Source: Escherichia coli (GTDB lineage: Bacteria > Pseudomonadota > Gammaproteobacteria > Enterobacterales > Enterobacteriaceae). From it: DNA of 64,000 nucleotides. Position 1 is the stretch's first letter, and every line of letters starts with the position of its first letter. This document shows, piece by piece, positions 8,700 to 38,934 of this stretch. The translations under genes were made by a program, and so were the position numbers. Where the stretch lies: assembly GCF_050920415.1 (NCBI RefSeq), contig NZ_CP169309.1, one strand, 5' to 3'. The notes beneath the pieces are model-generated. The model saw nothing but the letters and a program-made list of their open reading frames with translations. It made no database searches and was not told the origin of the DNA.

Positions 8700-10364
8700 T
8701 TAAAACGTTTCCCAGTTCTCTCCGCTATCTGCCACTGCCACTTTGCGCGGCGCAGATGGCGTCACAGTTTTTACTACTGCCGATGCTTCGCGCTGGCGTT
8801 GCTGCTCTTGCTGAATCCGGAACACTGCCACAGCTTCGGTCAGGCGACTGGCCTGCTCCTCCAGCGCGGCGGCGGCGGCGGCAGATTCTTCCACCAGCGC
8901 GGCGTTTTGTTGGGTTACTCGGTCCATCTCAGCTACTGCTAAGCCAACCTGATCGATACCACGGCTCTGCTCATCAGAAGCCGAAGCAATTTCGCCCATA
9001 ATGTCCGTCACGCGGGTCACAGCGCTGACAATCTCTGCCATGGTTTCCCCGGCGCTTTCGACCAGCGTAGAGCCAACATCCACTTTGCCCACCGAGTCTT
9101 CAATCAGGCTTTTAATTTCGCGAGCCGCCTGAGCGCTACGCTGGGCCAGATTACGCACTTCTCCCGCAACCACCGCAAAACCGCGCCCTTGCTCACCTGC
9201 ACGCGCTGCTTCAACCGCCGCGTTCAAAGCCAGAATATTGGTCTGGAAGGCAATGCCGTCAATTACGCTGATAATATCGGCGATTTTCTGCGAGCTGGTG
9301 GAGATATCGCGCATGGTCTGCACCACGTTATCCACCACTTTGCCGCCACGTTGCGCCGTTTCGGAAGCACTTAACGCCAGATGGCTAGCCTGACGCGCAT
9401 TCTCGGCGTTCTGTTTCACCGTTGCGGTCAGTTGTTCCATGCTGGCTGCCGTCTCTTCCAGCGAAGCGGCCTGTTGCTCGGTGCGCGAAGAGAGATCGTT
9501 ATTGCCGGTGGCGATTTCGCTGGCACCGCTATAGATAGCATTGGCCCCGTTGCGCACATCACCGACGGTACGCATCAGCTCCCCCTGCATATGGCGCAAA
9601 CTCTCTGCCAGTTGCCCCATCTCATTAGAACCATCCACCTCAATCGGTTTCACCAGATCGCCACCTGCAATATGACGAATGCTGTCAATCAGGCGATTCA
9701 TTGGCGCTACCAACGAGGCTTTAATACCGAACCAGACGGCGAAGATGACCGCCAGTACGACGATCATCACGCCCACCAGAATCCACATCGCCTGGCTGTA
9801 GGAGGCATTATTATCGCTGACGGCGATATCATAGAGCCGATCGTTTTGCTCCATGTAAGCCACATACTGCTTCTCGAAACCGTCCTGATATCCCTGAGTC
9901 GGCTGATCAAAGAATTCGTTGATTTTGCCTGCACCTAACAGTTGGATCAGTTCCGCCAGCGCATTGTGATAAATATCGTAATTACGTTTGATCTCTGCCG
10001 CTGCGGCGGTGCTCTGACGCGGGTCACGCGGCAATGCTTCGTAATCCGCCCAGTTTTTTTCCGCCTGTTTCAGCGAAATACTGGCACTCTGCATCAGCTC
10101 GGCAACGGTTGAACCGCTACCAATATTGTTCTGATCCATCATGTAGCGGATCCCCGCGCGGTTGAGGGTGTTACGCGTCTGCAACAACGCGACCCAGCTG
10201 CCATTCAGCGTGGATTGCTGCTGGCGAATGGTTTGTAAAACAGTGAAATTTTCTTTGTCATTCTTTAAGGCATTAAAGAACAGACCGCCTGATGTCAGTT
10301 GTAAAAGGCCAAAAACGGCCAAAACCAGCAGTAAGCTGGTCACGATCTTGATACGTTTTAACAT
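8700..10364 (-). CDS. tsr: methyl-accepting chemotaxis protein I, serine chemoreceptor
   Basis: The translation from the internal Met ([19 protein letters not shown]...) has the highly conserved MCP signalling domain and a C-terminal NWETF pentapeptide; recognised as Tsr. Confidence 0.95.
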
Positions 10365-10395
10365 GGTTTCTCTTTCCACTAGACAGATACACTGG

Positions 10396-10422
10396 TTGTC
10401 GGCCTGGTGGTGGAAAACTTTA
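10396..10422 (-). promoter_or_regulatory. sigma-28 (FliA) class III flagellar promoter for tsr
   Basis: On the minus strand the sequence reads TAAAGTTT-N11-GCCGACAA, a near-consensus match to TAAAGTTT-N11-GCCGATAA, about 30 bp upstream of the tsr start. Confidence 0.6.
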
Positions 10423-10503
10423 TGCTGTGGAAAAGCGTCGGCACTGCTTTTGTTGCAGCAAACTTGCGTTTTTTGTGAGGGTCACACTCTATAGCGGCAG
10501 TTT

Positions 10504-11409
10504 ATGGTACAAAGTATCAATCTTCTTCGAACCAGTGATACTCCTATGGCTTATAGCATCGATATCATCTCCTGCATTACCGAACGATTTATGGCGTTAA
10601 CAGCCACTGAAAAGCGTATCGCACAATTTATTCTTGATGACGTCTCTGCCGCAGTAGAGTTGCCAATTGCTGAGCTGGCACGGTTAACGCAAACCAGTCA
10701 GGCGTCGGTGACGCGTTTTGCCCGTGCACTGGGGTGCAAAGATGTCCGCGAGTTGAAAGTCAAACTGGCGCAGTCACTGGCTGTCGGGCAGCGGTTTATT
10801 CTCGATGTACCGGATCTTGACGGTGTTCAGGGGATCTACGAAGCGATTATTAGCGTGCTGGAAACGCATCGTCGTTCGCTGGATATGAATGCCATCAGCC
10901 AGGCTGTAAGCTGGTTAAGTCAGGCGCGGCAAATTCTTGCGTTAGGAACTGGCGGCGGTTCCACTATCTGTTCACAGGAGATTCAGTACCGTTTATTCCG
11001 TCTGGGGCTACCAGTGGTCAGTCAGAATGATGCCCTGATGATGAGAATGATGTGCTCGGCAGTGATGCCGCAGGATGTGGTGATTGTGCTGTCGCTGGGC
11101 GGTTATACACCGGAAATCATCGAAAGTGCGGCAATCGCCCGTCAGTATGGCGCGCGTGTTATTGCCATTACGCCAGCACAAACACCGCTGGCAGAACAGG
11201 TAGATCTGGTATTGCCGCTGCTGGTTCAGGAGAGTGATTACATCTTTAAACCCACGCCTTCCCGCTACGCGATGTTAGCCATGGTCGATGTACTGGCAAC
11301 GGAACTGGCAATGGCAAATAAAGCGCAGGCGAAAGATCGCCTGCGGCGGATAAAACTGGTGTTAGACAGCCACCGTGGGGGCGCTAACCGCCAGCCACTT
11401 GGCGATTAG
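10504..11409 (+). CDS. RpiR/MurR-family transcriptional regulator (HTH plus SIS sugar-phosphate-binding domain)
   Basis: 301 aa ORF; the domain pattern is recognised by eye. The start is uncertain, with an alternative ATG at 10546. Confidence 0.75.
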   Translation: MVQSINLLRTSDTPMAYSIDIISCITERFMALTATEKRIAQFILDDVSAAVELPIAELARLTQTSQASVTRFARALGCKDVRELKVKLAQSLAVGQRFILDVPDLDGVQGIYEAIISVLETHRRSLDMNAISQAVSWLSQARQILALGTGGGSTICSQEIQYRLFRLGLPVVSQNDALMMRMMCSAVMPQDVVIVLSLGGYTPEIIESAAIARQYGARVIAITPAQTPLAEQVDLVLPLLVQESDYIFKPTPSRYAMLAMVDVLATELAMANKAQAKDRLRRIKLVLDSHRGGANRQPLGD

Positions 11410-11418
11410 CATTGTCGG

Positions 11419-12888
11419 TTATGCTTCTTCAGGTTTGGTGATCACGACACTCTGGTTTTCACGCTCATTGGTGATAATAGCCAAAGCTTCTTCCCGGCTG
11501 ACCTGACTTGCTGGCGTTACCAACGTCACCAGTACGCCAGCGACCAGGCTGCCCAGCACTGACGGAATACACGGGTTACCCCAGTAAGCCAGCCAGTCGG
11601 CATTCATCAGCACCACAATTGACATCACCATACCGCTCACTAACGCCGCCAGCGCGCCCTGCCAGTTAAAGCGTAGCCAGAAGCGACCGAGAATCGAGCA
11701 GATAAACAGCCCGGACATCAGCATCGAAATCATTTTGGTAATGTAGCTGATGATGTCATTAGAGGTCAGAGCAAAGACCAGCGCCAGGCCAATAACAAAG
11801 GTCAACATCCAGCGTGAGTAAGTAATGGCCTTGTCCTCCGGCGGCATTCTGCCGGTAATCATGGTGTAGACGTCGCGCATCATAATCGCCACTGCCGCAA
11901 TGGCATCAGAACTGGCAGAAGACATGGTGGCAGAAAGCCCGGCAATCAGCACCACCAGCCCAAGAATGGCAGGTAAGAAGCTGGTCGCGAACAAGAAGGC
12001 ATAGTTACTGTTTTCCAGATTCGGGTTCATGGTGAACGCCGCCATGCCGATAATGGCAGGCAGAATCGAGAAGAACAGATACAACACGCCAGTAATAACA
12101 AATGAACGCCGTACAGAGGGAACGTCTTTTCCCGAGTAAATACGCTGGCGATAAGATGGTGTGGCCAGTACGCCGACACCAATAACCAGCGCCAGCGAAA
12201 GCGCAGGCAGCACGCCCATTTTATCAATCGCAAACAGGCTCATCGCTTTTGGGTCCATCGCCTGCTCAATCGCACTCCAGCCACCAACGTGAACAACGGC
12301 AAGAATAGCCATTAATATAAAGCCAAAGAACAGAATTAGGGCCTGAATGGTATCGGTCCACACTACCGCCGAATAACCGCCGATAATAACGTAAATCGCA
12401 AAAGCTAAGGCAATAATTAATTTTGCCACCGTAAGATCAATACCTGTTGCCCAGGCAAGATACATACTTCCACCTAATATATGCGCCCCCAGCCAGCCAA
12501 TAGAGGCAATAAATATCATCATGCCGACAATGTTTTTAATTAAATGACTGCCGCCAGTATAATAAGATATTTCTTCACTCATGGTCATAAAACGTAATTT
12601 ACGTACCGGTGCAAACAGCCACGCCACCAGTAATATACCTACGGCCCCACCGACGCCATAAAGCATTCCGGCCCAGCCATTGCTGTAGCCAAAGCCCACT
12701 GCGCCCATACTGGAACCCGTGCCAACCATCGTGGCAACGGTTGACCCCAGCGTCAGAAACAGCGGCAGCGAACGCCCGCCCAGCAGAAAATCTTCTCCGC
12801 TTTTCTGATTACGAGAAACAAACCAACCAAGCCAAATCATGGCGATGGCATAAATAATAAAGCCGACTAAAAAGATATGACTGTTCAT
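11419..12888 (-). CDS. sodium:solute symporter (SSS) family transporter
   Basis: 489 aa ORF, highly hydrophobic with multiple TM segments, PutP/PanF-like N-terminus, and an AGGA Shine-Dalgarno before the ATG. Confidence 0.8.
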   Translation of the reverse strand: MNSHIFLVGFIIYAIAMIWLGWFVSRNQKSGEDFLLGGRSLPLFLTLGSTVATMVGTGSSMGAVGFGYSNGWAGMLYGVGGAVGILLVAWLFAPVRKLRFMTMSEEISYYTGGSHLIKNIVGMMIFIASIGWLGAHILGGSMYLAWATGIDLTVAKLIIALAFAIYVIIGGYSAVVWTDTIQALILFFGFILMAILAVVHVGGWSAIEQAMDPKAMSLFAIDKMGVLPALSLALVIGVGVLATPSYRQRIYSGKDVPSVRRSFVITGVLYLFFSILPAIIGMAAFTMNPNLENSNYAFLFATSFLPAILGLVVLIAGLSATMSSASSDAIAAVAIMMRDVYTMITGRMPPEDKAITYSRWMLTFVIGLALVFALTSNDIISYITKMISMLMSGLFICSILGRFWLRFNWQGALAALVSGMVMSIVVLMNADWLAYWGNPCIPSVLGSLVAGVLVTLVTPASQVSREEALAIITNERENQSVVITKPEEA

Positions 12889-32049: not shown

Positions 32050-33669
32050 ATGGCCAAAGCACCAACTAAAAAAGCCAAAGCAAAAAAAGGCTTTGAAGAA
32101 ACATTATGGGATACCGCAAACCAGCTTCGCGGTAGCGTTGAATCCTCCGAATACAAGCACGTGGTGTTGAGCCTCGTGTTCCTGAAATTCATCAGCGATA
32201 AGTTTGAAGCACGCCGCAAAAAAATGATTGCCGATGGGCAAGCAGACTTCCTTGAGATGGAAGTGTTCTACCAGCAGGACAACATTTTCTACCTGCCGGA
32301 AGAGGCGCGCTGGTCATTTATCAAACAAAATGCCAAACAGGACGATATTGCGGTCCGTATTGACACCGCCCTCTCGACCATTGAGAAACGTAACCCAACG
32401 CTGAAAGGCGCGCTGCCAGACAACTACTTCAGCCGTCAGAATCTGGAAACCAAAAAACTGGCGTCACTGATTGATACCATCGACAACATCGAAACGCTGG
32501 CACACGAAACTGACGTTGAAACGTTATCGAAAGAAGACCTGGTCGGACGCGTTTACGAATACTTCCTCGGTAAGTTTGCCGCAACTGAAGGCAAAGGCGG
32601 TGGTGAGTTCTACACGCCTAAATGTGTGGTTACGCTGTTAACTGAAATGCTCGAACCCTTTCAGGGCAAAATTTATGACCCGTGCTGCGGCTCGGCAGGG
32701 ATGTTCGTGCAGTCGGTGAAGTTTGTCGAGAGCCATCAGGGTAAAAGTCGTGATATCGCGCTGTATGGTCAGGAACTGACAGCCACGACGTATAAACTGG
32801 CAAAAATGAACCTCGCTATTCGCGGTCTTTCAGCTAACCTCGGCGAACGACCGGCAAACACTTTCTTTAGCGACCAGCACCCGGACCTGAAAGCTGACTA
32901 CATTCTGGCGAACCCGCCGTTCAACCTGAAAGACTGGCGCAATGAAGCCGAATTAACCAAAGACCCACGTTTTGCTGGGTATCGTATGCCGCCAACCGGT
33001 AACGCCAACTACGGCTGGATTTTGCATATGCTCTCCAAGCTGTCGGCTAACGGCACAGCAGGTTTTGTACTGGCAAACGGTTCGATGAGTTCTAACACCA
33101 GCGGCGAAGGCGAGATCCGTGCACAGATGATCGAAAATGATCTGATCGACTGCATGATCGCCCTACCTGGACAGTTGTTTTACACCACGCAGATCCCGGT
33201 GTGTTTATGGTTTATGACCAAATCGAAGGCTGCCGACCCGGCCAAAGGTTATCGTGATCGTCAGGGCGAGACGCTGTTTATTGATGCGCGTAACCTCGGC
33301 ACCATGATTAGCCGCACAACTAAAGAGTTAACAGCGGAAGATATTGCCACAATCGCCGATACTTACCATGCCTGGCGCAGCACGCCGGAAGAACTGGCTG
33401 CACGGATTGCGCGTGGTGACAGCAAGCTGGAAAAATATGAAGACCAGGCTGGCTTCTGCAAAGTTGCGACCCTGCAAGACATTAAAGATAACGGCTACGT
33501 TCTGACACCGGGCCGCTATGTAGGTGCAGCCGAGCAGGAAGAGGACGGCGTGGCATTTGAGACCAAAATGCGTGAATTGTCGAAGACGTTGTTTGAGCAG
33601 ATGAAGCAGGCGGAAGAACTGGATCGTGCGATTCGCCAGAATCTGGAGGCGCTGGGTTATGGGGAGTAA
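32050..33669 (+). CDS. hsdM: Type I restriction-modification system N6-adenine DNA methyltransferase subunit
   Basis: 539 aa with an HsdM N-terminal domain, AdoMet motif DPCCGSAGMF and catalytic motif NPPF. Confidence 0.92.
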   Translation: MAKAPTKKAKAKKGFEETLWDTANQLRGSVESSEYKHVVLSLVFLKFISDKFEARRKKMIADGQADFLEMEVFYQQDNIFYLPEEARWSFIKQNAKQDDIAVRIDTALSTIEKRNPTLKGALPDNYFSRQNLETKKLASLIDTIDNIETLAHETDVETLSKEDLVGRVYEYFLGKFAATEGKGGGEFYTPKCVVTLLTEMLEPFQGKIYDPCCGSAGMFVQSVKFVESHQGKSRDIALYGQELTATTYKLAKMNLAIRGLSANLGERPANTFFSDQHPDLKADYILANPPFNLKDWRNEAELTKDPRFAGYRMPPTGNANYGWILHMLSKLSANGTAGFVLANGSMSSNTSGEGEIRAQMIENDLIDCMIALPGQLFYTTQIPVCLWFMTKSKAADPAKGYRDRQGETLFIDARNLGTMISRTTKELTAEDIATIADTYHAWRSTPEELAARIARGDSKLEKYEDQAGFCKVATLQDIKDNGYVLTPGRYVGAAEQEEDGVAFETKMRELSKTLFEQMKQAEELDRAIRQNLEALGYGE

Positions 33670-35069: not shown

Positions 35070-38000
35070 ATGAGTCTCTCTTTCAGTGAAGCAAAATTAG
35101 AACAAGCGATCATTGAACTGTTACAGGATCAGGGATATCAACACCTGATCGGCGATAATGTCCCACGTTCAAGTCTCGATCAGGTCATTATCGAAGACGA
35201 TCTCCGTCATTATTTAGCGGCACGCTACCAGCCTGATGGCATTACTGAAGAAGAGATTCAGCGACTGATCAAACAGTTCACCACGCTCCCCGCTTCCGAT
35301 CTTTATGAAAGCAACAAAACATTTTGTCGCTGGCTGGCAAATGGTTTTCTGTTCAAACGCGACGATCGGCAACAAAAAGATCTCTATATTGAATTGCTCG
35401 ACACCCGGCATCTACCTGCCGCACTGCGCCAGATATTTGACGCCGAAGATGTCCCGTTGCAACAGGCGGCGGAACTCCCGCCCTCCTATATTAATCCGCC
35501 GCTTAACCGGATTAAGATTGTTAACCAGCTTAAAATCTCCGGTAAAGATAATCAGACTCGTATTCCTGACGGCATTCTCTATATCAACGGTCTGCCACTG
35601 GTCGTCTTTGAATTTAAAAGTGCGGTGCGCGAGCAGGATGCCAGTATTGGCGATGCCTGGAAGCAGCTCTGTAAACGCTATCGCCGGGATATTCCGCAAC
35701 TGTTTATCTACAACGCGCTCTGCATTATTAGCGATGGCGTAAATAACCGGATGGGCAACCTGTTTGCGCCCTATGAATACTTTTACTCATGGCGCAAAGT
35801 CACCGGTAATGAAAACCGTGAACAGGACGGAATTCCGTCATTGCACTCAATGATTCAGGGGCTGTTTCATCCGGTACGTCTGCTGGATGTGATTAAAAAC
35901 TTTATCTGCTTCCCGGATAAAGCCAGGCACGAAGTAAAAATTTGCTGCCGATATCCGCAGTACTATGCCGCCCGCAAACTCTATTACAGCATCAAGCAAG
36001 CGCGTAAACCTTTCGGTAGCGGTAAAGGCGGCACCTACTTTGGCGCAACGGGCTGTGGCAAAAGTTACACCATGCAATTTTTAACGCGTCTTTTGATGAA
36101 GAGCGTGGAGTTTGCCAGCCCGACCATTGTTTTGATCACCGACCGCACCGATCTGGACGATCAGCTTTCTGCGCAAATGTGCAATGCCAAAAATTACATT
36201 GGCGACGACACCATCGTTCCTGTTACCAGCCGTGAAGATTTGCGTAATCAACTGGCGGGACGCAATAGTGGCGGTGTATTCCTGACAACGATCCATAAAT
36301 TCACCGAAGACACCGAACTCCTTTCTGAACGCAGCAATATCATTTGCATCTCGGACGAAGCACATCGCAGCCAGGTTAACCTCGACCAGAAAGTCATCGT
36401 CGATAAAGAAAGCGGAAAAGTGCGCAAAACTTATGGCTTTGCGAAATACCTGCACGATTCACTGCCAAACGCCACCTATGTTGGCTTTACCGGCACACCG
36501 ATTGACGCGACGCTCGATGTCTTCGGTGAGGTGATCGACAGTTACACCATGACCGAATCCGTTCAGGATGAAATCACTGTACGCATCGTGTACGAAGGCC
36601 GTGCGGCTAAAGTGATCCTGGACTCCAGCAAACTGGAAGAAGTCGAAAAGTATTACGAAGAGTGCGCAAACGCAGGCACCAATGAGTGGCAAATCGACGA
36701 AAGCAAGAAAGCCACGGCTACCATGAATGCGGTTCTGGGTGATGAAGATCGGTTAAAAGCCCTCGCGGAAGATTTTGCTAAACATTATGAAAAACGCGTA
36801 GCCGAAGGTTCCACCGTAAAAGGCAAAGCCATGTTTGTTTGCACCAGCCGTGAAATTGCCTGGGATTTCTACCGCCAGCTTAAAGCTATTCGCCCTGCCT
36901 GGTTTGAAGTGAAGCAAGCCCCCGATGGCGTCGTCCTGACGGAACAGGAGCAGAAAGAGTTACCGCCTTCAGAAATGGTGAAGATGGTCATGACGCGCGG
37001 TAAAGATGACGACGAGGCGCTTTATGATTTACTGGGCACAAAAGAATATCGTAAAGAGCTGGATAAGCAGTTCAAAAACGCTAAATCGAATTTCAAAATT
37101 GCCATTGTCGTTGATATGTGGCTGACCGGTTTCGACGTTCCTGAACTGGATACTATCTATATTGATAAACCCTTACAAAAACATAACCTTATCCAGACCA
37201 TTTCTCGCGTTAACCGTAAACTGGAAGGCAAAAGTAAAGGGTTAGTGGTGGACTATATCGGCATTAAGAGTCAGATGAACCAGGCACTGGCAATGTATTC
37301 CCGCATTGATGCCACCAACTTTGAAGATATTCAGCAATCGGTAATAGAAGTTAAAAACCATCTCGATTTGTTGGGGCAAGTCTTTTACGAATTTGACAGT
37401 CGGGATTATTTTAGTGGTGAGCCGCAAGCGCAATTATCCTGCCTCAACCGCGCGGCGGAATTCGTTCTGAGTACCCAGAAAGTTGAACGTCGTTTTATGG
37501 GACTGGTTAAACGCATGAAAGCCGCCTACGACGTCTGCTGCGGCAGCGAAGCATTATCACAGACAGAACGTGACTATATTCACTATTATCTTGCTGTTCG
37601 TTCAATTGTTTTCAAACTGACGAAAGGTGACGCACCGGATGTTACCCAGATGAATGCACGCGTTCGCGAAATGATTGCAGAAGCGTTAAAAGCTGATGGC
37701 GTAGAAGAGATTTATTTTCTTGGCGATAAAAAAGCGGAATCCATCGATATTTTTGACGAAGATTATCTGGCGCGAATTAACAAGATCAAACTTCCGGCAA
37801 CGAAGATCCAGTTATTACAAAAATTACTGGAAAAAGCAATCAGCGACTTCAAGAAAGTGAACCAGTTGCAAGGGATTAACTTCACCCGCCGCTTCCAGGC
37901 GATTATAGATCGTTATAATGAGCGGCGAGAAGATGATGTACTCAACGGTGAAGAATTCGATACATTCAGTCAGGAAATGACCGATATTATCTATGATATT

Positions 38001-38372
38001 AAAACCGAAATGGGCACCTGGGCCGACTTAGGCATTGATATTGAAGAAAAAGCCTTTTTCGACATTCTTGCTCATATGCGCGATAAATATCAGTTCACCT
38101 ATGACGATGAAAAAATGCTGTCACTGGCAAAAGAGATGAAAAGCGTGGTTGACAACACATCGAAATATCCTGACTGGAGTAAACGCGATGATATTAAAGC
38201 GAAACTGAAAGTTGAACTTATTCTGCTTCTACACAAGCATAAGTTCCCGCCAGTAGCGAATGATGATGTTTATATGGGTGTGCTGGCACAGGCAGAGAAT
38301 TTTAAAGAACATCATATGAGTGCTTTAAATTACTATGAACGCCGGATACACTTTGTTATCCGGCCATTGTGA
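35070..38372 (+). CDS. hsdR: Type I restriction enzyme R subunit (SF2 helicase/translocase plus endonuclease)
   Basis: About 1100 aa with an N-terminal HsdR domain and DEAD-box-like helicase motifs (GTGKS-type Walker A, DEAH-like box); GGAG Shine-Dalgarno before the ATG at 35070. Confidence 0.9.
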   Translation: MSLSFSEAKLEQAIIELLQDQGYQHLIGDNVPRSSLDQVIIEDDLRHYLAARYQPDGITEEEIQRLIKQFTTLPASDLYESNKTFCRWLANGFLFKRDDRQQKDLYIELLDTRHLPAALRQIFDAEDVPLQQAAELPPSYINPPLNRIKIVNQLKISGKDNQTRIPDGILYINGLPLVVFEFKSAVREQDASIGDAWKQLCKRYRRDIPQLFIYNALCIISDGVNNRMGNLFAPYEYFYSWRKVTGNENREQDGIPSLHSMIQGLFHPVRLLDVIKNFICFPDKARHEVKICCRYPQYYAARKLYYSIKQARKPFGSGKGGTYFGATGCGKSYTMQFLTRLLMKSVEFASPTIVLITDRTDLDDQLSAQMCNAKNYIGDDTIVPVTSREDLRNQLAGRNSGGVFLTTIHKFTEDTELLSERSNIICISDEAHRSQVNLDQKVIVDKESGKVRKTYGFAKYLHDSLPNATYVGFTGTPIDATLDVFGEVIDSYTMTESVQDEITVRIVYEGRAAKVILDSSKLEEVEKYYEECANAGTNEWQIDESKKATATMNAVLGDEDRLKALAEDFAKHYEKRVAEGSTVKGKAMFVCTSREIAWDFYRQLKAIRPAWFEVKQAPDGVVLTEQEQKELPPSEMVKMVMTRGKDDDEALYDLLGTKEYRKELDKQFKNAKSNFKIAIVVDMWLTGFDVPELDTIYIDKPLQKHNLIQTISRVNRKLEGKSKGLVVDYIGIKSQMNQALAMYSRIDATNFEDIQQSVIEVKNHLDLLGQVFYEFDSRDYFSGEPQAQLSCLNRAAEFVLSTQKVERRFMGLVKRMKAAYDVCCGSEALSQTERDYIHYYLAVRSIVFKLTKGDAPDVTQMNARVREMIAEALKADGVEEIYFLGDKKAESIDIFDEDYLARINKIKLPATKIQLLQKLLEKAISDFKKVNQLQGINFTRRFQAIIDRYNERREDDVLNGEEFDTFSQEMTDIIYDIKTEMGTWADLGIDIEEKAFFDILAHMRDKYQFTYDDEKMLSLAKEMKSVVDNTSKYPDWSKRDDIKAKLKVELILLLHKHKFPPVANDDVYMGVLAQAENFKEHHMSALNYYERRIHFVIRPL

Positions 38373-38444
38373 ATTAACGTTAATTTCTCTTCCAGATATC
38401 TCCAGTAACGCTTTTATTATTTTCTATTTTTAGCTGGACTTTCC

Positions 38445-38469
38445 CTGTATTTACTGATGATATGTCCAG
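38445..38469 (+). promoter_or_regulatory. candidate LexA operator(s) in the symE promoter
   Basis: CTG-N10-CAG arrangement (CTGATGATATGTCCAG) overlapping CTGTATTTACTG about 80-100 bp upstream of symE; symE is a known SOS gene. The match to the CTGT-N8-ACAG consensus is imperfect. Confidence 0.3.
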
Positions 38470-38475
38470 GTATTT

Positions 38476-38552
38476 AGCGCGGTGCGGATGTGCGCCAACA
38501 CACCCGCACCGCTAATCACAATCCCTATTTCTAAGGAATAGTAATCATGACT
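38476..38552 (-). ncRNA. symR: SymR antisense sRNA (type I antitoxin of SymE), approximate placement
   Basis: Placed by recalled K-12 biology (about 77 nt, antisense to the symE 5' UTR and start codon). A 9 bp stem, GCGGTGCGG at 38477-38485 pairing with CCGCACCGC at 38504-38512, is visible in this interval. The ends are not determined from sequence. Confidence 0.3.
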
Positions 38553-38888
38553 GACACGCATTCTATTGCACAACCGTTCGAAGCAGAAGTCTCCCCGGCA
38601 AATAACCGTCAATTAACCGTGAGTTATGCGAGTCGCTACCCGGATTACAGCCGTATTCCCGCCATCACCCTGAAAGGTCAGTGGCTGGAAGCCGCCGGTT
38701 TTGCCACCGGCACGGCGGTAGATGTCAAAGTGATGGAAGGCTGTATTGTCCTCACCGCCCAACCACCCGCCCCCGAAGAGAGCGAACTGATGCAGTCGCT
38801 GCGCCAGGTGTGCAAACTGTCAGCGCGTAAACAGAAGCAGGTGCAGGAGTTTATTGGGGTGATTGCCGGTAAACAGAAAGTCGCCTGA
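38547..38888 (+). CDS. symE: SOS-induced toxin SymE (AbrB-fold endoribonuclease-like)
   Basis: 113 aa ORF ([52 protein letters not shown]...) recognised as SymE/YjiW. Confidence 0.92.
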
Positions 38889-38896
38889 TACATTGA

Positions 38897-38920
38897 CCCG
38901 GTAGCGCCAGTGCTACCGGG
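38897..38920. terminator. hairpin between convergent symE and the DUF262/DUF1524 gene (CCCGGTAGC-loop-GCTACCGGG)
   Basis: Read directly. Confidence 0.45.
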
Positions 38921-38934
38921 TATTATTCGCCACG

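Follow-up and report, generated by a model that had tools for sequence, protein, structure and literature searches.

The interval 38445-38552 of the window (the whole stretch of 64,000 nucleotides of Escherichia coli DNA analysed here) is very probably the control region of a chromosomal symE-symR locus, operating as in E. coli K-12. An Rfam scan of positions 36000-41000 returned one match, SymR (RF01809), on the minus strand and at the place where the original prediction had expected this antisense RNA, with a score of 93.1 bits (gathering cut-off 61, E = 5.5e-18) and covering the model at full length (positions 1-77 of 77). The identification of the gene itself as symE was also borne out, since its product scores 76.8 bits against the Pfam family PF08845 (SymE_toxin, cut-off 29) and 230.1 bits against the NCBIfam SymE equivalog NF010128 (cut-off 132), and is 96% identical to K-12 SymE. 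The alignment with K-12 symE/symR that had been proposed as a check gave the same geometry: in K-12, symE (4579499-4579840, minus strand) and symR (4579835-4579911, plus strand) overlap by 6 nt at the start codon, just as SymR overlaps the first 6 nt of symE in the window, the LexA box has an orthologue identical at 18 of 20 bases, and the two sequences are near-identical from about 38417 up to symE, the -35 region included. The coordinates of all features are collected in Table 1.

Table 1. Features of the symE-symR locus and of its surroundings in the window (positions are those of the whole stretch).
Feature	Position	Strand	Basis or remark
hsdM	32050-33669	+	upstream of symE, with hsdS and hsdR, all on the plus strand
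hsdR, type I restriction subunit, same direction as symE	35070..38372	+	Pfam HSDR_N, SWI2_SNF2, T1R_D3-like, T1RH-like_C; RefSeq annotation of identical strain
Putative symE -35-like hexamer TGGACT	38435..38440	+	conservation
LexA (SOS) box TACTGATGATATGTCCAGGT, orthologue of the K-12 yjiW/symE box TACTGATGATATATACAGGT	38452..38471	.	K-12 alignment, conservation
Candidate symE -10 TGATAT, TG at 38455-38456 before the hexamer, 17-nt spacer from TGGACT	38458..38463	+	sequence
SymR antisense RNA gene, 77 nt	38476..38552	-	Rfam RF01809; 6-nt symE overlap as annotated in K-12
SymR 3' hairpin, 15 bp, 4-nt loop on the minus strand	38479..38512	-	fold and covariation
SymR 5' hairpin; loop is anti-Shine-Dalgarno, 5' end over the symE start codon	38514..38552	-	Rfam consensus (model positions 1-39) and fold
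symE Shine-Dalgarno AAGGA, 9 nt before ATG, wholly covered by SymR	38533..38537	+	sequence; role in K-12 from PMC3874152, PMC4147584
symE coding sequence, 113 aa	38547..38888	+	ORF list, translation, Pfam PF08845, NCBIfam NF010128
symR -10 TAGAAT, inside symE codons 5-7	38560..38565	-	K-12 identity; hexamer assigned from sequence
Hairpin between convergent symE and gmrSD, probable two-way terminator	38896..38921	.	fold -20.2 kcal/mol, z = -3.3
GmrSD-family type IV restriction nuclease, 697 aa, convergent with symE	38935..41028	-	Pfam GmrSD_N 119.9, GmrSD_C 94.1, DUF5655 51.6 bits

A reading in which all these features are chance similarities within an AT-rich spacer can draw on the abundance of the bare CTG-N10-CAG pattern (34 matches in the window where 13.7 would be expected), but it is refuted by the Rfam E value, by the presence of the region, with identities of 92-100%, in over 2800 E. 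coli genomes and by the strong covariation in the SymR 3' hairpin (described below), and its probability is practically nil. Among 5426 complete E. coli genomes, 2872 (about half) carry symE. The symE/symR system is already known, and the reading of the window as an instance of it is correct, its sole local peculiarity being a weaker-scoring but common operator allele whose core is conserved. The discovery value is small: the locus is a type I toxin-antitoxin and SOS gene of the textbook kind, carried by about half of the complete genomes of the species. The present analysis establishes the identity and orthology of the locus, the RNA family and its structure (with covariation), the strand under selection, the conservation of the operator core and the gene context.

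Likeness to known systems and proposed mechanism

The closest relative of the window locus is the K-12 symE-symR pair itself (b4347/b4625; Kawano, Aravind & Storz 2007, PMC1891008), with which it shares the gene, the antisense RNA, the 6-nt overlap at the start, the two-hairpin architecture of SymR, a symR -10 element within symE, a LexA box that probably lies over the promoter and a location in the immigration control region. The differences are confined to two substitutions in the LexA box (A13G and A15C), one base in the SymR 3' hairpin, at least five substitutions in the SymR 5' hairpin and loop (shortening the inner stem from 7 to 5 pairs), and the neighbours: upstream, the window has an hsdR of a different type I family without a terminator, whereas K-12 has hsdS followed by a terminator, and downstream the window has GmrSD where K-12 has McrBC. 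A variant of the immigration control region with GmrSD in place of McrBC and a resident symE-symR has already been described (PMC12707154). This Eco94GmrSD type shares with the window the Mrr-like nuclease, hsdMSR, symE-symR and GmrSD, with the genes placed between the anchors yjiA and yjiS/yjiR and brnAT nearby, and shows no notable difference from it. Further afield, the SOS type I toxin-antitoxin pairs tisB-istR1 and dinQ-agrB of E. coli resemble symE-symR in combining a LexA-repressed toxin with a small antisense RNA that blocks its translation (PMC4147584). Their toxins, however, are small membrane peptides, whereas SymE is a 113-aa protein of AbrB/MazE fold, and the genes of IstR-1 and AgrB lie next to those of their targets, whereas SymR lies exactly opposite symE.

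In K-12, the control of symE by LexA, SymR and Lon rests on published experiments (PMC1891008, PMC3874152, PMC4147584), and by analogy with these LexA binding, SymR expression and translational repression are all likely at the window locus. In this mechanism, LexA on its operator, which would overlap the putative symE promoter (approximately 38435-38463), would repress transcription, so that symE would be transcribed mainly once DNA damage inactivates LexA. SymR would be produced constitutively as a stable and abundant RNA, running from 38552 down to 38476 from a promoter within symE codons 5-7, and, pairing perfectly with almost all of the symE leader (Shine-Dalgarno sequence and AUG included), would block translation, while its 3' hairpin would provide the stability and the 3' end of the RNA. 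In K-12 the effect of SymR amounts to approximately 7-fold on the protein and 3-fold on the mRNA (PMC1891008, PMC4147584). Finally, the SymE protein itself would be degraded by Lon. According to the summary of Thompson et al. 2022 given in PMC11894785, SymE is now seen as a protein that binds DNA and condenses the nucleoid rather than as an RNase.

The two hairpins of SymR

The original prediction had drawn attention to a strong GC-rich stem just before the start codon, with 9-bp arms GCGGTGCGG (38479-38487) and CCGCACCGC (38504-38512), in the region where SymR was expected. This stem is the SymR 3' hairpin. It is longer than had been described, the full inverted repeat having 14-nt arms (38479-38492 and 38499-38512, 93% complementary, with a 6-nt loop), and it lies 35-68 nt upstream of the ATG (38547) and not immediately before it. 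On the minus strand SymR folds into two hairpins with -41.4 kcal/mol (z = -7.2, with none of 200 shuffles equally stable), and the 3' hairpin consists there of 15 uninterrupted pairs.

The same hairpin forms in the fold of the plus-strand symE leader (-32.6 kcal/mol, z = -3.9), and it lies downstream of hsdR in an orientation that the two share, as would suit a structure that works mainly on the plus strand, either as a stabiliser or translation modulator of the symE 5' UTR or as a terminator of hsdR, instead of as a part of SymR. On the plus strand, however, the stem is broken by an A·C mismatch at a position where the minus strand has a G·U pair, and this asymmetry recurs among the homologues, which were collected with a degenerate hairpin pattern from species-representative genomes (70 loci, leaving 48 distinct hairpins after chance hits had been dropped). 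Per hairpin, the SymR strand holds 2.0-2.4 G·U pairs against 0.16-0.19 A·C (an A·C on this strand being a G·U on the mRNA strand), a ratio of approximately 10:1, from which it follows that selection acts on the antisense RNA. A role as hsdR terminator was rejected as well: a terminator scan of 38200-39100 gave no site, there is no U-run or T-run after the hairpin on either strand, and, with its position downstream of the symE promoter, the hairpin is unable to shield that promoter from hsdR. A mainly plus-strand function is therefore very improbable, and the hairpin is best read as the 3' part of SymR.

The structure is maintained across the 48 distinct homologues, in which 97.1% of the pairing cells are paired, a figure to be read with the caveat that the collecting pattern dictated 8 of the 15 pairs and left only 7 free to vary. 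Six of these 7 free pairs are altered on both sides, and both the number of double-sided changes (110 observed, against 46.6 ± 5.1 in shuffles) and the covariation score of the hairpin (0.428, against 0.153) exceed what was reached in any of 500 shuffles, while in slid controls pairing was only 25-59%. Two loop positions, a U and a G, are invariant, and this conserved loop may provide the first loop-loop contact with the complementary hairpin of the mRNA.

In the 5' hairpin, the Shine-Dalgarno AAGGA faces the loop, and the ATG (38547-38549) lies within the span of SymR. Positions 38547-38580 are identical to K-12, including the symR -10 element, whose spacer to the SymR 5' end is 7 nt; in K-12, mutation of this -10 within symE abolishes SymR (PMC1891008). 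The 5' hairpin varies between strains in its loop and Shine-Dalgarno region (AAGGA, GGAGA or GGGA), and in the window allele two non-standard pairs are flagged by Rfam and the inner stem has 5 pairs, as noted above. Since SymR is encoded in cis, this variation leaves its complementarity to the mRNA unaffected.

LexA operator and putative symE promoter

Two sequences upstream of symE had been put forward as LexA elements, and one of them stands. The CTG-N10-CAG (CTGATGATATGTCCAG, 38454-38469), a palindromic core with an AT-rich spacer, is orthologous to the validated K-12 yjiW/symE site, which overlaps the promoter (PMC3874152) of a gene that is damage-inducible (PMC1891008). The differences between the two boxes fall at box positions 13 (A>G) and 15 (A>C). 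The CTGT further upstream (38445-38448), on the other hand, is not part of any box: a second LexA site through this motif was rejected, as the best overlapping 20-mer scores -1.96 bits, K-12 has CCAT in its place, and the motif is a strain polymorphism (TG/CA). A literature search with the exact K-12 box sequence gave no match.

A scan with a position weight matrix (PWM), which the original prediction had also suggested, gave a marginal pass only. With a symmetric matrix built from 18 validated boxes (PMC3009722; symE was absent from the training set), the window allele scores 9.07 bits, compared with 13.41 for the majority E. coli allele (…ATATCCAG…) and 14.75 for the K-12 allele, and lies below all 18 independent training sites, the weakest of which is polB (13.2 bits). 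It ranks fourth among 63,981 positions of the window (three others equal or exceed its score), and among 5000 shuffled versions of the intergenic region 81 score at least as high. The bare CTG-N10-CAG was rejected as evidence by itself, because its excess of matches over expectation in the window makes it non-discriminating. Given these scores, shuffles and bare matches, it is orthology and conservation, and not the strength of the motif, that identify the site: 27 of 29 enterobacterial species have CTG-N10-CAG at a distance of 4-8 nt from the 3' end of SymR, with differing spacer sequences.

Since a consensus promoter scan of 38200-39100 called neither the symE nor the symR promoter, we infer the promoter hexamers from conservation. 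Of 29 enterobacterial species loci, 25 have TGGAC or TGGCT at a constant distance from the LexA box, and the hexamer does not vary among 8 E. coli strains. The candidate -10 falls inside the LexA box, in agreement with the published overlap of promoter and operator in K-12 (PMC3874152). The hexamers would place the transcription start near 38470, also within the LexA box, and with such a start SymR would be complementary to almost the entire symE leader.

The low score raises the question of whether the operator still works. The two substitutions are predicted to weaken LexA binding relative to the K-12 allele, and the heterology index calculated with our matrix is 11.8 for the window allele against 7.9 for K-12 (7.9 is also the published index of the K-12 box, PMC11228462). 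The locus could then be the same one with a functionally degraded operator, symE being largely independent of LexA or expressed through read-through from hsdR, with SymR and Lon as the sole effective brakes. This would also be in line with the stretch from the hsdR stop to the symE promoter (38373-38434), which holds no terminator or stable hairpin (-7.1 kcal/mol, z = +0.2), so that in the window strain transcription from hsdR might run on into the symE leader. However, both triplets of the core, CTG and CAG, are intact; 7 of the 18 validated boxes likewise have C at box position 15; and sites with a published index up to approximately 13, polB and yoaA among them, still appear in the list of SOS genes (PMC11228462). 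Moreover, G at position 13 is also present in the reference genomes of Kosakonia, one Citrobacter and two Pantoea species, and the window allele persists in 322 E. coli genomes, which argues that it is tolerated. We therefore consider a degraded operator unlikely, and retain the reading of a LexA site that probably works, although with a predicted weaker binding. The more specific proposal, that the position of symE after an unterminated hsdR together with the weakest of the three common LexA alleles leaves its expression partly uncoupled from the SOS response and tied, through read-through, to transcription of the type I restriction operon, SymR then being the main safeguard, we regard as quite improbable; were it true, SymE would be a restriction-linked nucleoid protein in such strains.

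In exact-seed searches of the 5426 complete E. coli genomes, the window allele was found in 322, the majority allele in 1977 and the K-12 allele in 437. Strains MFDS1022581, F11 and NC101 are examples of carriers of the window allele. These three common natural boxes (…ATATGTCCAGGT, …ATATATCCAGGT, …ATATATACAGGT) differ at box positions 13 and 15 and, having different predicted strengths, offer a natural series for relating operator strength to SymE induction. Among 8 strains compared, a phylogenetically confounded sample and one too small for any conclusion, the G13 allele is present in 3 of the 4 with hsdR upstream and in none of the 4 with hsdS upstream.

Genomic context and SymR-like elements in other genera

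The flanking genes that the original prediction had named, hsdR and a GmrSD-like nuclease, were recovered by Pfam matches and by the RefSeq annotation of an identical strain. For the accompanying idea that SymE may respond to damage inflicted by restriction, the present data offer nothing more than the co-location of these genes in the immigration control region, an arrangement described before (PMC12707154). In K-12, the counterpart of 38373-38434 (9985-10075 of the compared region) carries a 58-nt insertion after hsdS with a GC hairpin and a T-run. On the other side of symE, the hairpin shared with the convergent gmrSD has no clean T-run, which is why the terminator scan did not call it.

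From the alignments, the symE-symR module reads as a conserved island amid exchanged restriction cassettes. Homology to other E. coli genomes sets in after the first 44-50 nt of the intergenic region and runs to the symE stop or slightly past it (approximately 38417-38884), depending on the neighbouring cassette. The window has an intact GmrSD gene. The closest RefSeq strain, MFDS1022581, matches the window at 100% identity over 38373-38934, but its GmrSD gene (9563-11656 of the compared region) is annotated as split into a 387-aa fragment and a DUF262 pseudogene. The RefSeq record of this strain (NZ_CP169399.1, 9001-9562 of the compared region) has symE annotated and the symR ncRNA not, only the K-12 record carrying symR. 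For annotation purposes, the use of the present analysis is that symR, unmarked in the RefSeq entry of the identical strain, can be placed, and that the GC hairpin is to be read as part of SymR.

SymR-like two-hairpin elements were also seen outside the Enterobacteriaceae, opposite the start codon and Shine-Dalgarno sequence of small ORFs, in Burkholderia, Caballeronia, Dyella, Luteibacter and Pseudomonas nitroreducens (loci L017, L028, L035-L037, L040-L052, L056, L059, L060, L066 and L073 of our collection). They match the Rfam symR model over its full length with 40-60.8 bits and E = 4e-9 to 4e-4, short of the 61-bit cut-off, show compensatory changes in their 3' stems, and have a -10-like TATGAT at nucleotides 14-19 of the coding sequence, a position as in E. 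coli. A LexA box was looked for upstream of these elements and none was found. The earlier description of the system noted only "nucleotide conservation upstream" for some SymE relatives (Kawano 2007, PMC1891008).

Some of the ORFs behind these cassettes (L035, L040, L046, L060 and L066, in Dyella spp. and P. nitroreducens) are not SymE. The possibility that the Dyella ORFs are divergent SymE proteins was rejected, as Pfam and NCBIfam gave no match and an hhalign comparison with the SymE alignment returned a probability of 0.3%. The antisense cassette seems here to accompany unrelated small proteins, potentially toxins not yet described. In Dyella, the ORF is a member of a conserved family of 114-aa "hypothetical" proteins, with 204 hits and approximately three copies per genome.
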